A stretch of 64,000 nucleotides of DNA. Origin: an uncultured Flavobacteriales bacterium. Its GTDB lineage: Bacteria; Pseudomonadota; Alphaproteobacteria; UBA8366; JADFVY01. Made by a program: the position numbers and the translations under genes. Under the pieces are notes generated by a model. The model saw only the letters and a list, made by a program, of their open reading frames with translations. It searched no databases and was not told where the DNA came from. The DNA is taken from positions 877 to 64,876 of the forward strand of contig CAYFYY010000015.1 of assembly GCA_964347475.1 (NCBI GenBank). Direction: 5' to 3'. Positions 3,658 through 42,409 of this stretch are shown here, piece after piece (positions within the stretch are counted from its first letter, which is position 1; each line of letters opens with the position of its first letter).

Positions 3658-3713
3658 CCGCGTAACGACATAATGGATGGCCGGGTGTTGATACACCCGG
3701 GGAGTACGAGAGC

Positions 3714-4052
3714 ATGGAAAAACCCAAGGCGATGACCCTGACGGACGCGGCCGCGGCACGCGTCAAACACCTGATGGCGCAGACCGACAAGGCCGTCATC
3801 GGCGTGCGCGTCGGCGTGACAATGCAGGGTTGCTCGGGCATGAGCTACAAGATGGAATACGCCGAGGAGGAACGGCCGTTCGAAGAGGTCGTCGAGGACA
3901 AGGGCGTGAAGATCTTCATCGATCCCGCGGCGACGATGTTCCTGCTCGGTTCCGAGATGGACTGGGTTGAGGACAAGCTCGCCTCGCGGTTCGTCTTCAA
4001 CAATCCGAACGTGAAGGGGATGTGCGGCTGCGGCGAGTCGTTCCACGTTTGA
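3714..4052 (+). CDS. A-type Fe-S carrier (IscA/SufA/ErpA family)
   Basis: 112 aa with the C-x(n)-CGCGESF signature (GCSGMSY...MCGCGESFHV). Confidence 0.85.
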   Translation: MEKPKAMTLTDAAAARVKHLMAQTDKAVIGVRVGVTMQGCSGMSYKMEYAEEERPFEEVVEDKGVKIFIDPAATMFLLGSEMDWVEDKLASRFVFNNPNVKGMCGCGESFHV

Positions 4053-4124
4053 CCGCGGCGGCAATAACAACAGGTCCGGCCTGCGGGGGTCGCGGCAACT
4101 GAGTGGGCGGGAAGACCGAGGCAT

Positions 4125-4457
4125 ATGCCCAAGATGACGTTCATAGAACCGGACGGCACCCGCAGGGAGGTCGACGCCCCGCTGGGCCTGTCGATCATGG
4201 AGATCGCCCACAAGCACGACATCGACATCGAGGGCGCTTGCGGCGGCTCGCTGTCCTGCTCGACCTGCCATGTCATCGTCGACCCCGCCTGGTTCGGCAA
4301 GCTGCCGGAGCCCGACGAGGAGGAGGAGGACATGCTCGACCTCGCCTTCGGACTGACCCGCACCTCGCGTCTCTGCTGTCAGCTGATCATGACCGAGGAT
4401 CTGGACGGCATTACCGTCACGCTTCCGGAAGAGACGCATAATTTCCTGTTGGATTGA
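4125..4457 (+). CDS. [2Fe-2S] ferredoxin, adrenodoxin/Fdx type
   Basis: 110 aa with the cysteine pattern [12 protein letters not shown] ... CCQ, typical of vertebrate-type 2Fe-2S ferredoxins. Confidence 0.85.
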
Positions 4458-4581
4458 TCCGAGACGACACGGCTCTTTTTGTGGCGACGGGGGTCGTGGC
4501 GCCTGACGCTGTGTTCCGGATCAGCCATGCCGCGCGTCGGCGAACGCCGGCGAATGGAACGTTGACGATAGCTTTGGTCGG

Positions 4582-5733
4582 TCAGTGCGAAGATCCGTCT
4601 GGATGCACCGCGTCGGGTCCGGCCCGCGCAATACGTCCCGCGATATCTGCCGTTTCCGCGGCAATCGCATCAAGCTCGTCAGATGTGAATTCCGGCCGAT
4701 AATATGCCGGTGGCCTCAGCCGCCCCGCGAACCGTGCCAGCGCCGCCTCGTCGGTCTCAAGGCGGCAATGATGCATCATCCGGCTCATCGTTTCCTGCGG
4801 GTGGTCACAAAGGTTCTCGTAACGGAGGATCATCGTAGCCTTGCGCAGCGCCTCATCGCGATCCAGCAACTCGGCCACATATCCGTAAATCATCGCCCAG
4901 TACCGGGCCCAGCCACGGGCATCTTCGCCGGATTCCCAGAGCGCCTGGATTTCCCGGACCCTGTCGACGTCGCCGCAGTTGATCGGCCGCAGGTCAAGCC
5001 CGAACTCGAAGTGGCCGACGCGACGCATGTAGTCGACAGCCCGCGGATTGCCCCGCTCACCCGCGCAGAACAGCTCGTGCTGCTTGATCAGTGATGCGAC
5101 ATGCCACACGGGATCGCGGACGGGGACGATGAACCGTGCGTCGGCAAACAGCTTGTGCAGATAGCCCATGCGCGTGACGTTGTAGTTTCCCTTCGACAGG
5201 TACCGTGGTTTGGCCCGCGCCGCGAGCAGCTTTCGGATATGCTCGCGATAGAATTTCTCGAACGCCGCGTTCTCGGCTGTTCGGTCCAGCACATGCGATC
5301 GGCCGGGATCGTGGGTGTGGCTGAAAAACGCCATCCAGATTGCCTCTTCGCGGGCTTCGGGACTGTCCGCGGTGACCATGAGGCCGTCCTTGTGGGCGCG
5401 CTCCGCCGCGACGAGGGGGCCACGGCGGGTCCTCTCGACGAACCAATTCCACCACCACGGCGTGAAGACCGGGGGAAAGTCGCGATAGAGGTGCGTTGCA
5501 ACGTCGCCATGCGATGCCAGAATTTCGAGCGCGATCGTCGTGCCGGCGCGGGCCAGACCCGTTACGTAAATCGGTGCCGTGATCGGGACGGACGCAACCG
5601 CATCCGCCAGCACGCGTGTTTCGAGGTTGCCAAGCCCGATCCATAAACGGGGAAATCGCTCGATCAGGCCGCCGACGACATGATCGAAGCCGGAAACCCG
5701 GAATGACGCTTCGATATCCTGGCTTGTTGTCAT
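4582..5733 (-). CDS. Sulfotransferase family protein (PAPS-dependent type)
   Basis: 383 aa with a 5'-PSB-like loop (VTGLARAGTTIALE) and a 3'-PB-like motif (IVPVRDPVWHVASL). Confidence 0.7.
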   Translation of the reverse strand: MTTSQDIEASFRVSGFDHVVGGLIERFPRLWIGLGNLETRVLADAVASVPITAPIYVTGLARAGTTIALEILASHGDVATHLYRDFPPVFTPWWWNWFVERTRRGPLVAAERAHKDGLMVTADSPEAREEAIWMAFFSHTHDPGRSHVLDRTAENAAFEKFYREHIRKLLAARAKPRYLSKGNYNVTRMGYLHKLFADARFIVPVRDPVWHVASLIKQHELFCAGERGNPRAVDYMRRVGHFEFGLDLRPINCGDVDRVREIQALWESGEDARGWARYWAMIYGYVAELLDRDEALRKATMILRYENLCDHPQETMSRMMHHCRLETDEAALARFAGRLRPPAYYRPEFTSDELDAIAAETADIAGRIARAGPDAVHPDGSSH

Positions 5734-5757
5734 CAGTCCGCCTGTCCCCGGTCTCGT

Positions 5758-6525
5758 TCAGCGGATTCGGAACAGCAGCTTGACGGCAACCGACGCAACG
5801 AGGACGACGAGGATGAACGGGGCCTCCCAGCCGCGCATCCAACCCGGACCGAATGGAAGGAACTCCTTGGGGTGCAGCTCGACGCCGATCAGGTCGACCG
5901 GCGCATCGTCCGGCAGCGAACCGAGCGGATTGGCAAAGAAGATGTTCCACCATAAGCGCTTGTGGATAACCGGGACGGGTCGTGCCAGCGGCAGGGTCAG
6001 CATCGGCTGACCGGAGTCGTCGGTCACCTCGACCGTTCGGTCCGCAGCGGGCCACAGCAGGGTCCACGGGCCGTCGCCGGAGACGGGCGCGGTGCCCGGC
6101 CACGCCAGCGGACGGCTGGTCGGCTCACCATAGACGCGAACGGGCTCGCCGGTCTGCGGCAACTCGTAGCCGTAGTTTGCGGCGAGCCATCCCATCATCA
6201 CAAGAACGGGCAGCGAGCCAACGAGGGCGGGTCCAAGTGCGAGGCCGAGGTGCCGCACAGAGGTCGACAGTGATCGGCCCATGACCGCCCATATGCCCGC
6301 GAAGGTACCGTCATACGCGGCGAGTGCCTGACGTGCCTCGGCGGCATCGCGCCGGACGGTCTCCAGTTTGCGCTGCGGCGAGGCGAGCCAATAGAGTGCC
6401 ATCGACAGCGTTCCGGAAATCGTGCCCCACAGGACCAGCCGGGCCGAGTCGGGCAGCAGGTGTGCCAGTGCTAGGTCTGCCGAGCTGAGGAGCGGCGCGG
6501 GTATGTCGAAGATGCCGGTTTCCAT
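5758..6525 (-). CDS. Hypothetical membrane protein
   Basis: 255 aa with hydrophobic segments near the N-terminus, middle and C-terminus. No motif recognised. Same strand as, and directly upstream of, the sulfotransferase. Confidence 0.5.
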   Translation of the reverse strand: METGIFDIPAPLLSSADLALAHLLPDSARLVLWGTISGTLSMALYWLASPQRKLETVRRDAAEARQALAAYDGTFAGIWAVMGRSLSTSVRHLGLALGPALVGSLPVLVMMGWLAANYGYELPQTGEPVRVYGEPTSRPLAWPGTAPVSGDGPWTLLWPAADRTVEVTDDSGQPMLTLPLARPVPVIHKRLWWNIFFANPLGSLPDDAPVDLIGVELHPKEFLPFGPGWMRGWEAPFILVVLVASVAVKLLFRIR

Positions 6526-12063: not shown

Positions 12064-13407
12064 TTACCGGACTGCGCGCCAACCGTCGATTCGCCAAACG
12101 CTCGGAATTGCGCGAAATTGCGGCCAGTAACGTGAGAGGAAACCAGCAGCCAGGATGAGGAATGCCCAGCCATAGAGAGACGCGAAGAAAAAGTGACTTG
12201 CCCGGGAGTCCTCGGCGCCGATGACCTCCATCAACCGGTACAGCAGCCCCACCAGCGCGAAATGAAACAGTACCGGCATGGCGAGCACAGCGCCTCCCAG
12301 CTTCATCGCCGAGTTCCACCTGAATGAGAGAAAAATCGGCAAGAGGAACAACACATAATGAATCCAGCCGATCGGCGACGCCAGGACTGTCGCCACCAGC
12401 GCGACGGCGCTGGCATCTTCACTGCGCGGTTGGAAACGCCAGGCCCACAATGCGATACCGGCAAGCATCAGGAAGCCGAGAGCAACTCCGATCCATAAGA
12501 CGCCCGCGCGCGCCGACATTGCGGCGAGCGACAAATTGGTTCCAAATAGAATTCGTCCCGGATCGCTTGTCATCCAGGCGTCTAGCCACTGTACATAGAC
12601 CCCCGGTCCGAAGATGACGGCCGGCAGGATGCTCAGGATTGCGGCACCTGCAAGCGCCGCCAGAGCGGTGCGCCTGTATCCGGCAATGAACAGGACCACC
12701 GGCCAGACCAGGAAATTGGGTTTCATGGCGACAAGAATGCCCATCATGAGGCCGGCCGATACGGGGCGCTCCCGCTCCAGCAGAATCCAGGCGGCAACCG
12801 AACAGACCAGCAGCAGGATGTATATTTGACCAAGATCCAGCGTGTCCCAGAAGCCCGGGAAGCAGGCGGCCCACAAGATCATCCATTTGCTCGGGCTCTC
12901 CTGGCGCGTCGAAGACAGCACGATCATCGTGGCGACGAACAGTGACAGGGACAGCCACCAGGTAATCTGGAAGGCCAGTCCAGGTTCGATCATCGACAGT
13001 GGCGCGAAAACCAGGAGGGAGACCGGCGGGTTCAGGTTCGGATTAAACCCGTGGAAAAAGCGCGTCTCGACAAAGAAGCTGAGCTGGTACTCGGCATATG
13101 GATTCAAACCGCGACGCGCCGCAGCGCCGGATTCGTAAAACGTACCGAAATCACGGAGCTGCTTGCGAACCTCGGGCAGTTCGCGCTGCAGCGACGACAG
13201 ATCTTCGTTGAAGGTATCGATATGCGCGGTTAGGACACGAAGACTGTCCTCGGGCTTGGTAACGAAGTATTGGAAGACGATAAAGAACACCAGGAGTAAG
13301 GCGGCTGTTGCACGGGCAGCCGGATGGTTCCAGAAACGAACGGGAATTGACTCCGGGGGTGCCGATTCCGGTGTTCGTTCCGGGTCGAGGGCCTCTGCAT
13401 CGGACAT
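12064..13407 (-). CDS. Polytopic membrane glycosyltransferase-like protein (DUF2029/GT87-like, GT-C fold), paralog 1
   Basis: 447 aa with more than 8 hydrophobic segments. The N-terminal loop QLRDFGTFYESGAAARRGLNPY and the blocks MKPNFLVWPVVLF and SPIGWIHYVLFLLP are shared with 15486..16808. Confidence 0.6.
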   Translation of the reverse strand: MSDAEALDPERTPESAPPESIPVRFWNHPAARATAALLLVFFIVFQYFVTKPEDSLRVLTAHIDTFNEDLSSLQRELPEVRKQLRDFGTFYESGAAARRGLNPYAEYQLSFFVETRFFHGFNPNLNPPVSLLVFAPLSMIEPGLAFQITWWLSLSLFVATMIVLSSTRQESPSKWMILWAACFPGFWDTLDLGQIYILLLVCSVAAWILLERERPVSAGLMMGILVAMKPNFLVWPVVLFIAGYRRTALAALAGAAILSILPAVIFGPGVYVQWLDAWMTSDPGRILFGTNLSLAAMSARAGVLWIGVALGFLMLAGIALWAWRFQPRSEDASAVALVATVLASPIGWIHYVLFLLPIFLSFRWNSAMKLGGAVLAMPVLFHFALVGLLYRLMEVIGAEDSRASHFFFASLYGWAFLILAAGFLSRYWPQFRAIPSVWRIDGWRAVR

Positions 13408-13776
13408 GGATCGGTGGTTCCAGATTCTGACGCGGCGATGCCATCGGCAACACCGAACAACGTGCCTATCGGCGATCTGACGGCCTCCTTCTCACTGCGG
13501 CCGGCAGCCGCTGCGGACGAGAAATACCGCTCCCAACCGCACATATCTCCAACAGCACAATTGTTAGAAGTTCCGTATTAACAATCAGTTAATTAATATC
13601 AAGGAAAGAAAACCAGACAGATATTTGATGTAAAGGCGGGAATATTTCACGTCCCGACTGAATACATATGGCCATTGGTCGCACATGGCACATCGAGGGC
13701 CCAAATCGGTCGTGACATCGGATAAACAGGCGGCAATCGCAAGACAACCTGGAAACGACACTCCTCGTGGAGCGCC

Positions 13777-25604: not shown

Positions 25605-25951
25605 GACCCTGCCCGGCGGGCCGGGCGGGCGTCTCCATTCGACGGGAAAATCCGGAAGCCGCCGCTGTGCATCTTGCCGAGATGGCGGGAGCGCCGCCGA
25701 GCGTTCGCGGGCGGTTTAAGCTATGCCGTACCCACATCGCCCTGTCCCAGGACGACCCTGACACACCGCACCGGCACTGCGCTCCCGGTCAGGGGGAGAT
25801 CTGACCCGAATCCCAGGCCGGGCCAACGCGGGTGGACGGCGTTGGCCCGGACATATCGATGCGGGGTGGGCAATCCCGAATCCGCGTTCGCTCGGCGGCC
25901 GGTCGGGCGCGACTGGGGTTTGGGTGAGATCGCGCCCGATCGTCCAGTCGC

Positions 25952-26215
25952 TCAGTTGTCGCCGGGCCCCTGGTCGGGCGTGCCGTCATCGTCGCCGGCA
26001 TCCGCAGCGTCGTCGTCGTTGCCGCCGCCCTGATCCGGCGTGCCGTCATCGTCGGCGGCATCCGGAGCGTCGTCGGCGCCGTTCTTGGCGTACGCGGACT
26101 TCTCGACGAGCATACCGGCGTCCAGGGTCACCGGCGCCGCAACCGCGATCGCAAAGACACCGAGTGCCAGCGCTGCAATCACCGCCTTGAGTAAATCTGT
26201 CGTCCTGTTCGTCAT
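25952..26215 (-). CDS. Small secreted/anchored acidic repeat protein
   Basis: ATG at 26215 gives MTNRTTDLLKAVIAALALGVFAIAVAAP, then an Asp-rich tail with DAADDDGTPDQG twice. The underlying DNA is a tandem repeat. Confidence 0.45.
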   Translation of the reverse strand: MTNRTTDLLKAVIAALALGVFAIAVAAPVTLDAGMLVEKSAYAKNGADDAPDAADDDGTPDQGGGNDDDAADAGDDDGTPDQGPGDN

Positions 26216-26490
26216 GGTTTTACCCTCTCTATTGCACGTTCCCGGCATAACCCGGCTCTGAAATCCCGGGACTGCCGACTTGGCTTCAAGCAAAGCCGGG
26301 CTGGATCATGCCCCGTTACAGGGCGGCAGCGTAATGGGCGGAAGACGGAAGTGGTCGATGTTTGAAGTCCCATTGGAACCCGACCCTGGGCGGGGGCCGA
26401 AAGTGCGATTCGCATCGGACCTTGGTCGGACTTGTCATGCACGCTCCGCCGTCGGTACTCTTGCGCATTAACGATTTGGGATTAAATGCA

Positions 26491-27921
26491 ATGACTCTCC
26501 TGCCGGGGAAATTTCATCGGCAGCTCAGTCTGGCCCAGCAATACATGCTGGCGAGCTTCGTGATCCTCATCTGCTGCACGATCGGCATCGGCTGGTGGAT
26601 CGGCCACGAGATCGAGGCCGGCGTCATCAACGAGACGTCAACGACCACCGCCCTCTACATGAACAGCTTCGTCGCGCCCCTGGTGCAGGATCTCGCCGAG
26701 GGCGACGAGATCGCTGAGGACAATGTCGCCCGGCTGGATGCGCTGATCAAGGAGACGCCGCTCGGCCGCTACGTCCTGTCGTTCAAGATCTGGAATAGGG
26801 AGGGGCGTGTCGTCTACAGCAACAACAGGGACGTCATCGGCAAGGTCTTCGACATGGGCGGGAACGCCCAGCGCGCCTGGAACGGCACGGTGGCGACGGA
26901 GGTCTCCAGCCTCGGCGACGACGAACATGCCGGCGAGCAGCAGTACGGCGACCGCCTTCTGGAGACCTACAGCCCGATCTGGCGTGAGGACAGCGACGAG
27001 ATCATTGCGGTCGCGGAATTCTACCAGACCGTCGCGCATCTCGACGCCCGGATCCTGAGGACGCGTTTGTACGGCTGGATAACCCTCGGCGCGGCGGCGC
27101 TCATCGTCTATATCGTCCTCGCCGGCATCGTACGTCGCGGCAGCGACACCATCGTCCGCCAGCAGCGCGAGCTGAGCGAGAAGGTCCGGCAGCTGACGGA
27201 CCTCCTGGCGCAGAACCGGCGGCTCAGCGAACGGGTCCGCCGCGCCGCCAGCGGCACGACGGCCCGCAACGAATATGTCCTGCGACGGATCAGCGCCGAG
27301 CTGCACGACGGTCCGGCGCAGGCGCTGGGGCTGGCGGTGCTGCGCCTGGACGCGGTGATGGAGCACACCTCGGGCTGCGACTGCGACAAGCGCACCCTGC
27401 GCCAGGCGAACGAAGATCTGATCACGATCCAGAGCTCCGTGCACGATGCCCTTTCCGAGATCCGCAAGCTCTCGACGGGGCTGATCCTGCCGGAGCTCGA
27501 CGAACTGACCCTGCACGAGACGCTCGCCCGCGTCATTCGCGGTCACGAGCTGCGGTCCAACACCAAGGTCGCCCTCGAGGTCGCCGGCCTGCCCGACGAT
27601 GCGAGCCTGCCCGTCAAGATCACGATCTATCGGGTCGTGCAGGAGGCGCTGAACAATGCCTACCGGCACGCTGGCGGCAAGGACCAGCGGGTCCAGGTCG
27701 GCCACGCGCTTGGCCGGCTGATCGTCGATGTGGTAGATGACGGCCCCGGCTTCGATCCCGCCAACCCGCTGATCCAGAACGGCCATCTTGGACTTGAGGG
27801 CATGCGCCAGCGGGTCGAGAGCATGGGCGGGACGTTCGAGATCGACGCTGCGCCCGGGCGCGGCACGCGCATTCACGCGGAGTTGCCGGAGCAGCCGGCC
27901 GAGCACGACTATGTCAACTGA
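26491..27921 (+). CDS. Sensor histidine kinase (HisKA_3 / NarX-like class)
   Basis: Two N-terminal TM segments flank a periplasmic domain. H-box ISAELHDGPAQAL; N/G boxes QEALNNAYRHA and DDGPGF. Confidence 0.8.
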   Translation: MTLLPGKFHRQLSLAQQYMLASFVILICCTIGIGWWIGHEIEAGVINETSTTTALYMNSFVAPLVQDLAEGDEIAEDNVARLDALIKETPLGRYVLSFKIWNREGRVVYSNNRDVIGKVFDMGGNAQRAWNGTVATEVSSLGDDEHAGEQQYGDRLLETYSPIWREDSDEIIAVAEFYQTVAHLDARILRTRLYGWITLGAAALIVYIVLAGIVRRGSDTIVRQQRELSEKVRQLTDLLAQNRRLSERVRRAASGTTARNEYVLRRISAELHDGPAQALGLAVLRLDAVMEHTSGCDCDKRTLRQANEDLITIQSSVHDALSEIRKLSTGLILPELDELTLHETLARVIRGHELRSNTKVALEVAGLPDDASLPVKITIYRVVQEALNNAYRHAGGKDQRVQVGHALGRLIVDVVDDGPGFDPANPLIQNGHLGLEGMRQRVESMGGTFEIDAAPGRGTRIHAELPEQPAEHDYVN

Positions 27922-28573
27922 GAAGATCCGCATCGTCGTCGTCGACGACCACCCGCTGTTCCGCGAGGGCGTCGCCACCACCCTGTCCAGCTATCCCGAT
28001 CTCCAGGTGGTAGGTGAGGGGGCCTCGGCCGAGGAGACGCTGCGCCTGGCCCGCGATCTGCTGCCCGACGTGCTGCTGCTCGACGTCAGCATGCCCGGCG
28101 GCGGGGTCGCCGCGGCGCGCGCCGTCGCCGCTGCCTACCCGGTGATCCGCATTATCATGCTGACCGTCTCGGAACATGAGGAGGACGTGCTGCGATCGCT
28201 CAAGGCCGGCGCGCGCGGCTATATCCTGAAAGGCGTGACGGCGCGCGAACTGGTCAATATCGTGCGCGCGGTGCATGCCGGCGAATCCTATGTGACGCCC
28301 AATCTCGCCGCGAGCCTGCTGGCGGACTTCCGGGATGAGGGCAGCGACGCCTCGAGCGAGGACGGGCCACTCGACGAGCTGACGGTGCGCGAGCGGCAAA
28401 TCCTCGAGCTGCTGGCGACCGGCCGCAGCAACAAGGAAATCGCCCGCAGCCTCGAGCTTGCGGAGAAGACCGTAAAGCACTACGTGACCAACATCCTCGA
28501 GAAGCTGCAGGTGCGCAACCGCGTCGAGGCGGCGGTGCTGGCGCAGCGGGTGACCCGGGACCGCACCGGTTGA
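27911..28573 (+). CDS. Response regulator, NarL/FixJ (LuxR HTH) family
   Basis: IRIVVVDDHPLFREG receiver domain, and a C-terminal LTVRERQILELLATGRSNKEIA LuxR-type HTH. Overlaps the kinase stop by 11 nt. Confidence 0.9.
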   Translation: MSTEKIRIVVVDDHPLFREGVATTLSSYPDLQVVGEGASAEETLRLARDLLPDVLLLDVSMPGGGVAAARAVAAAYPVIRIIMLTVSEHEEDVLRSLKAGARGYILKGVTARELVNIVRAVHAGESYVTPNLAASLLADFRDEGSDASSEDGPLDELTVRERQILELLATGRSNKEIARSLELAEKTVKHYVTNILEKLQVRNRVEAAVLAQRVTRDRTG

Positions 28574-28612
28574 TCCGGCGGCCGAACGGTCGCGACACGG
28601 CCGGGCGCGCAC

Positions 28613-28642
28613 TTGACAGGAGCAAGGATCAGGCCGTATAGC
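28613..28642 (+). promoter_or_regulatory. Sigma70-like promoter candidate for tRNA-Met
   Basis: TTGACA (28613-28618), an 18 nt spacer, then TATAGC (28637-28642), 15 nt upstream of the tRNA 5' end. Confidence 0.4.
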
Positions 28643-28656
28643 GTCCCGGCTTCCGC

Positions 28657-28733
28657 GGCGGAGTAGCTCAGCTGGTTAGAGCAGCGGAATCATAATCCGC
28701 GTGTCGGGGGTTCGAGTCCCTCCTCCGCTACCA
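28657..28733 (+). tRNA. tRNA-Met (anticodon CAU), elongator-like, CCA encoded
   Basis: Hand-folded cloverleaf. Acceptor GGCGGAG/CTCCGCT, D-arm GCTC-AGCTGGTTA-GAGC, anticodon stem GCGGA/TCCGC with loop ATCATAA (CAT at 28691-28693), T-arm GGGGG-TTCGAGT-CCCTC, ending ACCA. An Ile2 (lysidine) identity cannot be excluded from sequence alone. Confidence 0.9.
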
Positions 28734-28741
28734 ACAAAAAG

Positions 28742-28780
28742 GCCCGTTATGTCAATGGCATAACGGGCTTTCTCTTTGTG
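28742..28780 (+). terminator. Rho-independent terminator after tRNA-Met
   Basis: GCCCGTTATG-tcaatgg-CATAACGGGC followed by TTTCTCTTTGTG. Confidence 0.6.
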
Positions 28781-29345
28781 TGAAAGACGGCATTTGGACG
28801 GTTTCATGTTGCATTTTGTTGCAATGCCTTTGCGTTGATATCCAACGATTTCCAATCGGGCGCGGCGACTCCGTGCGACAAGGATGCAACAAAAACGCTG
28901 CCGGCGCTGGCGACTCACTGGCGAAATTCGAATCGCCGTTGCATGTGGGCGAAGCGGCACGGGTTACGGAGTTTCCAGAAGTCCCGACCACGGGCTACAC
29001 TAGGGTACAAATGCGCCCGGGCGGATCACCGTTCGTCCAGACATTTCCGCTAAGCGACCTGCCGTTGCCAGCCGCGCACGGGGCTTGACGGCAGTGTACA
29101 TAGGACTCATGCTCTCCCGCTAATCGGAGAAGATGCGCCCGGATGGATCACCCGCCCGGGCGTTTCCATTGCGCGAACGCCGTTTGCCAGAGTCACCGAA
29201 TGTGATGTTTCGCCGCCGCCGGTGGCTTCGCGTCGCAGCTGGCCGCGGTGCCGATCAATGTTGCCGCAGTCTCAAAACGGATCGTCCCCGAAGTCGAAAT
29301 TCCGACTTCGGAGCCGGCCGGCATGCCTTTTGGAAGGGAAATATC

Positions 29346-29555
29346 ATGAAGCTTGCCGACGATGTGTTGTCGGGCGTCGCGGCCATCTCCGAATTCACAG
29401 GGGATCCGATGCGGCGGACGTATCACCTCCTCGAAACTGGCCAGTTGCCGGCGTTCAAATTGGGCGGTCGTTGGATTGCCCGGAAATCGAGCATCCTGAA
29501 GCACTTTGAAAAGCTTGAGGAAGGGCAGGACGCCCGCGGCGCCGGGGCGGACTGA
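29346..29555 (+). CDS. Small helix-turn-helix DNA-binding protein (AlpA/excisionase-like)
   Basis: ATG at 29346 behind GGAAGGGA. 69 aa: MKLADDVLSGVAAISEFTGDPMRRTYHLLETGQLPAFKLGGRWIARKSSILKHFEKLE. This is the typical excisionase/AlpA-type winged HTH pattern (...G.LPA.K.GGRW...). Confidence 0.6.
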   Translation: MKLADDVLSGVAAISEFTGDPMRRTYHLLETGQLPAFKLGGRWIARKSSILKHFEKLEEGQDARGAGAD

Positions 29556-29556
29556 G

Positions 29557-29793
29557 ATGGTGTATCGAACACCGCCGGCGGAGCGGAGTGCGCTCGAGAT
29601 CAGGCGCACCGATTTGGACCTGGACCTGACGCGTCTGGGCAATATCGTGCTGCGCCGGCACCGCGAAGTCCGGCAGTCGCGGGGCCGTATTAAGGTGCAG
29701 CGCGTGGAGGAGACACCGCTGGGCCAATGTCTGCCGTCGCCGCAATGGCCGCCGGCAGGTGAAGGGCCGTTGGCGGGGGAGTTGGGGGCATAA
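29557..29793 (+). CDS. Possible small ORF coupled to the HTH gene (unknown; may be a gene remnant)
   Basis: ATG sits 1 nt after the HTH stop (TGAGATG). 78 aa, and its stop lies 1 nt before the first CTGCTAC repeat. No motif recognised; composition is Arg/Pro-rich. Confidence 0.25.
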   Translation: MVYRTPPAERSALEIRRTDLDLDLTRLGNIVLRRHREVRQSRGRIKVQRVEETPLGQCLPSPQWPPAGEGPLAGELGA

Positions 29794-29794
29794 A

Positions 29795-30061
29795 CTGCTA
29801 CGCTGCTACCGAGCTGCTACGCCGTCTGTAGCAGCCAAGTCACGGAAACTCTTGGGAAATATGTGAACTGCTACGCTGCTACGCGTCAAAACACGACTCA
29901 CACGCGCGCGTGAGTCACTGCGTAGCAGTTGCCGAATCCGTAGCAGTTCATGGTTTTCTTAATAGAATCAGTGAACTGGCTGCTACAAAACCTGCTACAG
30001 GCTGCTACGCGCCGACGCTGGTCGGTGAATTGTCACTCTAAATCAGGGAGATAACTGCTAC
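29795..30061. repeat. Iteron-like array: 12 copies of CTGCTAC (9 direct, 3 inverted)
   Basis: CTGCTAC at 29795, 29803, 29814, 29868, 29876, 29980, 29992, 30002 and 30055. GTAGCAG at 29828, 29922 and 29940. Inverted repeat GACTCAC-N8-GTGAGTC at about 29895-29916. AT-rich stretch TTTTCTTAATAGAATCA at about 29954-29970. Confidence 0.85.
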
Positions 30062-30168
30062 GCCACGGCGAAACGAGGGATGAAGGGGATGCACACGAAC
30101 AGAAACAGGGCGGACGGGGTCAACTGGAATGTGCGGCTGTAACCTGATCAGGGCAGACCTCGAGGACG

Positions 30169-30385
30169 GCGCGGGTCCTTCCCGGCCCATGGTCGTTTGC
30201 GGGTACGGCGCGGCGCGGGATGTCGCCAGTGTAGGGGTTCGAGATTCCGGTTAAAGGTGCGGTTAAACCGGTTAAGTCGCGACGCCGAGCGCCGCGGAAC
30301 ACGGCGACGCACGGGTGGACCGCACGGCATCCCTACTAATCTCGCCGATAGCCTCGATGTTCTGTGTCCGTCACGCGAGGAGAAA
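30169..30385. repeat. Copy A of a roughly 220 bp imperfect direct repeat (partner at 42184-42409)
   Basis: Shared blocks: GCGCGGGTCCTTCCCGGCC, TTGCGGGTACGGCGCGG, TGTCGCCAGTGT, TTCGA.ATTCCGGTTAAAGG..CGGTTAAAC.GGTTAA, and CTCGATGTTCTGT. Three GGTTAA hexamers at 30249, 30261 and 30270. Confidence 0.75.
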
Positions 30386-30439: not shown

Positions 30440-30964
30440 TTACACGCGCTCGCCGAGGCGTCGGCGACAGCCGGCGCAGAATGTGGCACGCTTGCGGTCG
30501 GTCTCGTCGAGGCAGTTGCTGAACCACATCACGCAGCGCGGCTCTGCGCAGTGCCCGAGGCCGAGGGTATGGCCGATCTCGTGGATGGCCTCCTTGAGGG
30601 CGCGTTGTCGGAAAACACGCGCATCCGCGCCAACGCCCAGGCGGCTGAGGGAGATGACCGCAGCCCGCCCCGACGGGTCCGCCATGCCGAACACGAAGTT
30701 CAGCCCGTGTGCATAAAGATCGGCATCGGTGACGGCGAGCACATGTCCGCCGGGCCGCCTGCGCGCCCGATCACGGGCCATGTGGAGTAAGGCATCAGCA
30801 CGGAACTGGTGGCGTTCGGAATCGTAGGCCTCGGACGGCAGTTCTTCACCGTCGCTCACTATCGCGTCGAACCCGGCGCTCGCGAGATCGCAGGCCAGCG
30901 CGTCGATATCACGACTGTCCGGATTGCCGACGGGAAACATTGCGATACGGAGCGCCATGGCCAT
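30440..30964 (-). CDS. Archaemetzincin-like zinc metallopeptidase (M54 family)
   Basis: ATG at 30964; 174 aa. HEIGHTLGLGHC metzincin/archaemetzincin signature plus a downstream Cys pair (FCAGC). Confidence 0.75.
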   Translation of the reverse strand: MAMALRIAMFPVGNPDSRDIDALACDLASAGFDAIVSDGEELPSEAYDSERHQFRADALLHMARDRARRRPGGHVLAVTDADLYAHGLNFVFGMADPSGRAAVISLSRLGVGADARVFRQRALKEAIHEIGHTLGLGHCAEPRCVMWFSNCLDETDRKRATFCAGCRRRLGERV

Positions 30965-42183: not shown

Positions 42184-42409
42184 GCGCGGGTCCTTCCCGG
42201 CCGGGCGCCAATTGCGGGTACGGCGCGGTGCGGGTTGTCGCCAGTGTCGGTGTTCGAAATTCCGGTTAAAGGCCCGGTTAAACAGGTTAAATCAAGAGGT
42301 TAAGGTCGACGCCGGGAGTCGCAGATCATGGCGGTGTGCCGGGTCGGAGCGCCACCGATTCGATTTCGCCGACATTCTCGATGTTCTGTTTCCGCATTTC
42401 GACGAGAAA
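42184..42409. repeat. Copy B of the roughly 220 bp imperfect direct repeat (partner at 30169-30385)
   Basis: Same conserved blocks as copy A. Four GGTTAA hexamers at 42264, 42276, 42285 and 42298. Confidence 0.75.

Follow-up and report, generated by a model that had tools for sequence, protein, structure and literature searches.

A CTGCTAC heptamer array beside tRNA-Met in an uncultured bacterium is probably an orphan iteron origin of phage or satellite type

The 64,000-nt stretch of DNA analysed here (contig CAYFYY010000015.1, positions 877 to 64,876; hereafter the window) carries a dense array of the heptamer CTGCTAC, located downstream of a tRNA-Met gene and a small helix-turn-helix (HTH) gene. 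We counted twelve copies within 267 bp (29795-30061), nine of them in + and three in - orientation, which confirms the number and orientations reported in an earlier note on this DNA; the three clusters, the GACTCAC-N8-GTGAGTC inverted repeat and the AT-rich stretch that it described are likewise all present. Its further statement that most of the heptamers extend to a longer motif did not hold, as only 5 of the 12 copies reach the full ACTGCTACG and 8 of the 12 reach CTGCTACG. The array is laid out as follows:

29795, 29803, 29814, 29868, 29876, 29980, 29992, 30002 and 30055, + strand: direct copies of CTGCTAC
29828, 29922 and 29940, - strand: inverted copies of CTGCTAC
29795-29834, +++-: iteron cluster 1, with three copies direct and one inverted, at spacings of 8, 11 and 14 nt
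29868-29882, + strand: iteron pair ACTGCTACGCTGCTACG, 8 nt apart, left of the palindrome
29894-29915: central palindrome of 22 nt, near-perfect, with halves GACTCACaCGC and GCGcGTGAGTC and a (CG)n core
29922-29946, - strand: inverted iteron pair (CGTAGCAGT), opposing the left pair across the palindrome
29946-29975: AT-rich stretch, a candidate unwinding element, GC 0.30 over 30 bp
29980-30008, + strand: iteron cluster 3, made up of three direct copies at spacings of 12 and 10 nt, opposing the inverted pair across the AT-rich stretch
30055-30061, + strand: solitary twelfth iteron (ACTGCTACG), intact in the related contig L001

Both chance and a generic dispersed repeat were ruled out as explanations by shuffle counts and a 7-mer density scan of the window. 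The remaining 63.7 kb hold three copies of the heptamer (7937, 16810 and 62378), so the similar density elsewhere that would have spoken for a generic repeat was not seen, and dinucleotide-preserving shuffles of the whole window give an expectation of 2.49 +/- 1.73 copies. When canonical 7-mers were counted in a sliding manner across the 64 kb, six or more copies per 300 bp occurred nowhere but in the CTGCTAC array. The AT-rich stretch is similarly rare, being among the four most AT-rich 30-mers, with equally or more AT-rich 30-mers making up 0.08% of those in the window. The array contains no open reading frame (ORF) of 50 aa or more, except for a 50-aa ORF on the - strand (30038-30190) that overlaps its last 24 nt; Rfam returned no family over the region other than the tRNA, and a sigma-70 promoter scan found no promoter. 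No DnaA-box-like site was found in 29700-30150, which is consistent with a self-loading initiator.

The locus is also present, at about 90% identity, in two metagenome contigs, L001 and L002, and we used the comparison of the window with L001 to assess conservation; three further contigs (L141-L143) match exactly, belong to the same strain as the window and are not informative for this purpose. Within the array, none of the 84 heptamer positions differ between the window and L001, compared with 17 of the 183 spacer positions (Fisher p = 0.002). At the spacer rate about 8 changes would be predicted over the heptamers, and all twelve are intact in L001. The central palindrome is 2 nt longer in L001 (a spacer of 10 nt vs 8) and is palindromic still. 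The HTH gene differs from its L001 counterpart by 15 synonymous and 4 non-synonymous codons, with three of the latter falling in the C-terminal tail, and this predicted gene is under purifying selection. Together, these change counts indicate that the heptamers and the predicted HTH protein are constrained, and the retention of the heptamers while the spacers drift suggests that the array is probably still used. As a separate observation, the independent assemblies L141, L142 and L001 each break or carry a run of Ns within or close to the array: L141 begins at window position 29918, L142 has Ns at about 29911-29962 and L001 stops at 30103. These breaks could arise from the palindrome, or from an array shared with another replicon in those samples.

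Pattern scans for CTGCTAC clusters in IMG/VR and metagenome contigs returned uncultured high-GC viral contigs in which the same heptamer stands beside genes for a predicted replication initiator (Rep). In L007, a 690-aa protein combining Prim-Pol, PriCT_1 and VapE-like parts is encoded at 188-2260 and the array follows from 2261, with three CTGCTAC/CCGCTAC copies, a (CG)n tract, an AT-rich run and six inverted copies in that order; L009 and L128 represent the same phage type. L146 encodes a 706-aa protein of the same architecture (gene 3664-5784) followed by an array of like layout at 5790-6045, and L151 has a Rep that is 92% identical, again with an array of like layout directly past the stop. 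Two more contigs were found through homology to the Rep C-terminus, namely L147 (68% identical; nine copies of the iteron CTGCTACACC, beginning 22 nt past the stop) and L149 (57% identical; iterons CCGCTACAC/CTGCTACACC, beginning 3 nt past the stop). Thus in L007/L009/L128, L146, L147, L149 and L151 the array starts 0-40 nt past the stop of a Prim-Pol/PriCT/VapE-like gene. The arrays share with the window a common grammar of pairs 8 nt apart and oppositely oriented clusters, along with a (CG)n palindrome at the centre and a stretch rich in AT, and (CG)n or palindromic centres were also observed in the arrays of L007, L147, L151 and two further Rep loci, L162 and L188. Furthermore, the left 95 nt of the window array, spacer included, are collinear with L009, where cluster 1 corresponds to the distal iteron cluster, with an alignment score of 47 compared with 17 +/- 2.5 (maximum 32) for shuffles. 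As to the yield of these scans, a loose three-heptamer pattern in IMG/VR returned mostly coding tandem repeats of giant viruses, while the metagenome scan contributed one further phage copy (L128) and 12 other matches that were judged unrelated by GC content and repeat spacing, three of which (L130, L132 and L133) had their sequences read.

The VapE-like part of the L007 protein matches the PDB entry 7PDS, the SaPI1 (Staphylococcus aureus pathogenicity island 1) Rep1-DNA complex, with an E-value of 2.3e-39. A model of the C-terminal 186 residues of the same protein is a confident helix-helix-helix-hairpin winged helix, and its top structural match is likewise 7PDS, with winged-helix regulators next in rank. 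The predicted phage initiator is thus homologous to SaPI Rep1. No Rep was detected in the window, either by tblastn with the phage Reps or by a profile hidden Markov model (HMM) of the Rep C-terminus run in six frames. Given that the phage arrays adjoin rep and that the window array has no Rep beside it, the window copy would be an orphan.

To relate the heptamer to the initiator, we took 80 Rep loci from IMG/VR, followed each match as far as its stop codon and tallied the 7-mers of the 350 nt beyond. An array was observed downstream of the Rep stop in at least 14 of the 80 loci, and in about half the first copy lies no more than 10 nt away (range -6 to 103 nt). Heptamers of the CTGCTAC/CCGCTAC(AC) type accompany Reps whose C-terminus is at least 57% identical to that of L007. 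Where the C-terminus falls below about 50% identity, the repeats are instead CATCACA, CGGGACA, CGTGACA, GGGAACA (12 copies), GTGGACA (11 copies), TGCCACA (9 copies), CCGTGAC or TGACCA. Two of these loci, L162 (3590-3840) and L188 (3540-3800), share the grammar of the window, with pairs 8-9 nt apart, alternating clusters and a central GC-rich palindrome. Since the heptamer found at this place changes from one Rep lineage to another, these findings indicate that the iteron sequence tracks the Rep lineage and that the putative initiator and its iteron co-vary.

As published, a SaPI origin comprises 6-12 short iterons that follow the rep ORF immediately; about its middle is an AT-rich region, flanked on either side by two or more iterons, those of one side pointing opposite to those of the other. 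The C-terminal winged helix of Rep recognises these iterons, and in SaPI5 pri and rep are fused (PMC9371898). The window array agrees with these rules in the number of its iterons (12) and in having an AT-rich centre with at least two opposed iterons per side, namely 29922(-) and 29940(-) against 29980(+), 29992(+) and 30002(+); the palindrome is flanked in the same manner by 29868(+) and 29876(+) against 29922(-) and 29940(-). It departs from them in not adjoining a rep gene. The arrays of the phage contigs follow all of the SaPI rules, adjacency to rep included. The likeness to the origins of SaPIs and of phage-inducible chromosomal islands (PICIs) in general therefore lies in iteron number, AT-rich centre and opposed iterons, and, for the phage relatives, also in an array placed 3' of rep and a homologous initiator. 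On the other hand, the window and the phages use heptamers where SaPIs use penta- or hexamers, the window array has an additional central (CG)n palindrome, the hosts would be of a high-GC Gram-negative type, and the window origin is on its own, with neither pri, rep nor int and no second attachment (att) site. Origins of the Rep type are a known kind, to which this analysis adds a new heptamer, the (CG)n palindrome and a new phage group.

We then considered the DNA in which the array is embedded, whose principal features are:

28657-28733, + strand: tRNA-Met (CAT), the integration landmark (ARAGORN; Rfam tRNA, 65 bits)
28734-28930: conserved non-coding block, the tRNA-proximal end of the element, with a terminator-like hairpin and the motifs TTTCATGTTGC..GTTGCAA..TTTCCA..GCGGCGACTCCGTGCGACA.GGATGCAACA
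29346-29555, + strand: 69-aa winged-HTH gene with an Xis/BldC/Cox-like fold, the sole conserved gene of the remnant
29557-29793, + strand: 78-aa ORF (ATG 29557, TAA 29791-29793); the first heptamer begins 1 nt after its stop
30169-30370, + strand: non-coding host repeat of dispersed type, lying outside the origin; a second copy, 42184-42394, is 74% identical (E 4e-31)
30440-30964, - strand: archaemetzincin gene, right of the array and followed by PCMT and then a DJ-1/PfpI gene

The non-coding block is 93% identical to L001, and it recurs 3' of a tRNA-Met end in L003 (30-200), of a tRNA 3' fragment in L004 (330-490) and of tRNA-Gln in L005 (9100-9250), which suggests that it is probably an att arm or early control region of an element family. 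The 69-aa HTH protein scores 21.7 bits against Pfam HTH_17, under the gathering threshold of 27, and matches phrog_18541 in PHROG with an E-value of 1.6e-8, while its L003 homolog, 64% identical, exceeds the threshold at 29.8 bits. Its AlphaFold model (pLDDT 84.8) has BldC, mycobacteriophage Pukovnik Xis and P2 Cox as top PDB matches, with probabilities up to 0.98, TM values of 0.5-0.65 and weak E-values. It resembles these proteins in fold and in lying beside the att arm of an element that has integrated, and differs from them in that its sequence similarity is marginal; most simply, it is the leftover Xis/AlpA-type factor of the element. Upstream of the HTH gene lies a 20-nt direct repeat, ATGCGCCCGGnnGGATCACC with the palindromic CGCCCGGGCGG, at 29011-29030 and 29133-29152, and each copy begins a short ORF with a similar N-terminus (MRPGGSP and MRPDGSP).

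The 78-aa ORF has no match in Pfam or PHROG. In L001 the corresponding region contains 117 gapped alignment columns, is 75% identical over the rest and differs in reading frame, and because it is not conserved there, the ORF is probably no gene but a spacer in decay or the scar of a deletion. Neither tblastn nor the profile HMM detected a remnant of Rep in this ORF or to the right of the array. The earlier note was accurate in placing tRNA-Met about 1 kb from the array, in starting the array 1 nt past the stop of a small ORF and in reporting no Rep or integrase nearby, none having been found in the window by tblastn, profile HMM and family scans. Its description of the HTH as AlpA/excisionase-like holds at the level of fold and finds weak support in sequence, as the HMM search it proposed gave the sub-threshold HTH_17 score for this protein and no match for the 78-aa ORF, and its view of the latter as a translationally coupled gene was not borne out by the closest relative.

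On the right, the host repeat at 30169-30370 bounds the region, so that the element-derived DNA extends at most from 28734 to about 30168 (approximately 1.4 kb). The two copies of this roughly 200-nt repeat (30169-30370 and 42184-42394) lie on the same strand and contain three and four GGTTAA motifs at matching 12/9-nt spacing, accounting for seven of the nine GGTTAA in the window; the repeat has no Rfam match, and RNAalifold gives a long-range fold in which 5 of 59 pairs are compensated, from two sequences only. We found no second copy of the tRNA 3' end (att) in the window, and no integrase in the window, including within about 6 kb of the array. A 10-mer, GGGGTTCGAG, at 30234 was considered as attR and rejected as a chance-level match inside the unrelated dispersed repeat. 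In the relatives L144 and L145, whose archaemetzincins are 77-83% identical, a Y-family polymerase gene occupies this place, convergent with the archaemetzincin gene; no trace of it is left in the window, and an empty-site comparison with the two contigs gave no right junction. With the polymerase gene gone, the right junction, as judged from this comparison, arose through a larger rearrangement or deletion. The region shows no similarity to annotated phages or plasmids (PLSDB). A whole PICI would comprise int, an AlpA-type regulator, pri-rep, an origin and flanking att repeats over about 10-15 kb, and the window holds an HTH gene and an origin only.

Further out, the genes beyond DJ-1/PfpI are annotated as alanine-racemase-family and lysine/ornithine-aminomutase in other assemblies of the same strain. 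To the left of tRNA-Met lie a LuxR-type response regulator, a probable sensor kinase and mnmA, the latter two recognised from ORF translations only. Between mnmA and tRNA-Met, L001 (906-1010, compared with window 25605-28656) lacks two things that the window has there, a gene for a small secreted protein and a pair coding for a histidine kinase and a LuxR response regulator.

Distant homologs of the HTH gene start the early or replication module of tRNA-integrated elements. In L003 a tRNA-Met 3' end is followed by a MerR-like gene, the HTH_17 gene, an 89-aa gene and then a large protein that matches phrog_29234, a phage family without assigned function (E 7e-103), and weakly phrog_19930, annotated as DNA polymerase/primase (E 1e-9); in L004 the HTH gene follows a tRNA 3' fragment. 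L005, from an alphaproteobacterial metagenome-assembled genome, has tRNA-Gln, a MerR-like gene, HTH_17, a sigma-like protein, a RuvC-like resolvase and an AAA_25 helicase, and directly past the helicase gene (13303-13480) an array of its own, composed of six GGCAAC/GTTGCC and two GTGGAAACGCC. The next gene after that array, judged by its sequence, is a putative insertion sequence transposase gene. Searches of GTDB genomes and of IMG/VR gave one distant HTH locus each, L005 and L230, and no CTGCTAC array was found beside the HTH homologs of L003, L004, L005 and L230. The window has the tRNA-adjacent block and the HTH gene of these elements without any replication genes. Collectively, these data suggest that the array most likely sits in the stripped remnant of an element integrated at tRNA-Met, of which the tRNA-proximal arm and the HTH gene are left.

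The reading we favour, with moderate confidence, is that the CTGCTAC array is an orphan Rep-type iteron origin, of phage or satellite kind, within a decayed tRNA-Met element and served in trans by a phage initiator. The earlier note had already proposed an iteron origin similar to those of phage satellites or PICIs, a view that the like arrays 3' of SaPI-Rep-like genes in phages support; its two options, the last piece of a decayed tRNA element or a site for a factor encoded elsewhere, are not exclusive and both fit, as the binding factor is not encoded in the window. In intact phages the origin would begin right past the Prim-Pol/PriCT/VapE stop, the C-terminal winged helix of Rep would read the heptamers, and Rep hexamers would load on either side of the centre and melt its AT-rich or (CG)n core. 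As the orphan origin has no Rep of its own, an initiator with CTGCTAC specificity would have to arrive in trans, from an infecting or resident phage or from elsewhere in the genome. The outcome could be in-situ replication when the phage is present, sequestration of the phage initiator, or both. We infer, from the parallels above, that Rep would bind the heptamers, that the site could fire or titrate Rep in the host and that the host might gain from this. What is unusual is the orphan, apparently selected state of the origin.

Several observations weigh against this reading. The array-bearing phage contigs are uncultured, and we infer Rep binding and replication for them as well. The selection argument stands on a single pairwise comparison, that of the window with L001. 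In a large cluster of Reps at 43% identity, whose C-terminus is extended, no array follows the gene, so the positional rule is that of a subfamily, to which not every VapE protein conforms. All the phage contigs place the array between their replication module and their packaging module, and terS is 50 bp to 1.9 kb away from it. The sole misfit to the placement 3' of Rep is L008, a podovirus-like contig of 13.9 kb and 62% GC in which the array (1293-1718) lies by terL and no Rep is present; its CTGCTAC copies flank roughly 150 bp of extremely AT-rich spacer, with terL on one side and, on the other, a 544-aa gene without assigned function that precedes a P22-like portal gene. With arrays next to packaging genes, L008 included, a packaging role retains a small probability.

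That role would make the array a pac/cos-like or ParB-type site, read by a small terminase or a ParB-like protein, with the chromosomal copy directing the packaging of host DNA. The position just upstream of the packaging module in L007, L146, L147 and L149, the placement directly past terL in the Rep-less L008 and the ParB-like genes that follow the array in L007 and L147 all speak for it. However, terS is found anywhere from about 50 bp to 1.9 kb from the array, a forty-fold range, whereas the Rep stop is steadily 0-40 nt away, no ParB adjoins the arrays of L146 and L149, and opposed clusters round an AT-rich or palindromic centre combined with a lineage-specific heptamer constitute the published grammar of Rep origins (PMC9371898), so we regard packaging as very unlikely. 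Only marginally more credence is due to an array read by the island's own 69-aa HTH protein, as an operator or a recombination-directionality platform. The model of this protein best matches BldC, Pukovnik Xis and P2 Cox, proteins that bind arrays of short direct repeats head to tail, and the gene adjoins the array with both conserved. Yet the phage contigs with the same arrays encode no detectable HTH homolog, the HTH homologs of L003, L004, L005 and L230 have no such array, the heptamer follows the Rep lineage and not the HTH, and its 8-nt spacing and mixed orientation are unlike the one-turn, same-orientation filaments of Xis-type proteins. This explanation is quite unlikely.

A dead relic is a stronger contender, if still an unlikely one: the array would derive from a Rep-type origin and be inactive, having simply not decayed since the rest of the element was deleted. 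A window without Rep, integrase or second att copy and a visibly decaying 78-aa ORF region are compatible with this, as is the fact that only two diverged lineages were compared, but inactivity accords poorly with 0 of 84 heptamer changes at about 10% divergence where about 8 are expected (p = 0.002), and with purifying selection on the adjacent HTH gene (15 synonymous and 4 non-synonymous differences). The earlier note had also seen a resemblance to arm-type recombinase sites. Paired short repeats flanking a 7-N8-7 inverted repeat do recall an attP layout, in which the palindrome would be the core of a tyrosine-recombinase site cluster. This finds no support, however, in that the array has no identity with the tRNA 3' end, no second att copy is present in the window, no integrase lies within about 6 kb, and the palindrome spacer changes from 8 nt in the window to 10 nt in L001, a 2-nt variation intolerable for a crossover region, which in an attP has a fixed overlap of 6-8 bp; the real att arm of the element family is probably the conserved tRNA-adjacent block, and we consider the arm-type explanation highly improbable. 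A plasmid iteron origin of the RepA/pi/TrfA kind, with 17-22-bp iterons in one orientation and DnaA boxes, was rejected, as the units here are 7-9 bp, lie in both orientations and are accompanied by no DnaA box; PLSDB gave no similarity either.

Returning to the orphan origin, three known systems offer comparisons beyond the SaPIs. The ori and crr of satellite phage P4 consist of short direct and inverted repeats read by the C-terminal domain of a fused primase-helicase (alpha), and P4 integrates at a tRNA, has a small HTH of AlpA/Vis type and keeps its initiator and integrase. It differs from the window in this retention, in the primase domain of alpha, which is of another kind, and in an unrelated iteron sequence. 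The PLE of Vibrio cholerae, a phage-inducible island, encodes its own initiator (RepA) and excises, whereas the window element encodes neither initiator nor integrase. PLE is a chromosomal island that replicates after infection by the lytic phage ICP1 (PMC7145576). In phage-encoded resistance (PER), reported for multicopy plasmids in lactococci, a phage is hampered when a clone of its origin is present in trans (PMC8965321). The window would resemble PER in holding a phage origin without its phage that is recognised by the replication proteins of an incoming phage, and differs in that it has a single, natural chromosomal copy known from sequence alone.

These comparisons frame a further idea, which we advance tentatively and think rather unlikely, that the orphan origin is kept by selection as a gene-less cis-element, either as a decoy titrating a CTGCTAC-specific phage primase-helicase or as a most reduced satellite. 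A decoy, if real, would be a natural counterpart of the engineered PER phenotype. A reduced satellite would be an integrase-less, rep-less site amplified in situ by a helper Rep, raising the transduction of flanking host genes. The analysis ties a chromosomal site to a specific putative partner, the Prim-Pol/VapE Rep of an uncultured high-GC phage group, and defines the likely origin of those phages, with its heptamer, palindrome and AT-rich core, by sequence alone. The table of heptamers by Rep lineage would also provide ready pairs of initiator and iteron specificity for the SaPI-Rep/VapE family. If conservation of the heptamers reflects use, the array would represent a natural, gene-less phage origin maintained in a bacterial chromosome, whether as a decoy or as a hitch-hiker.

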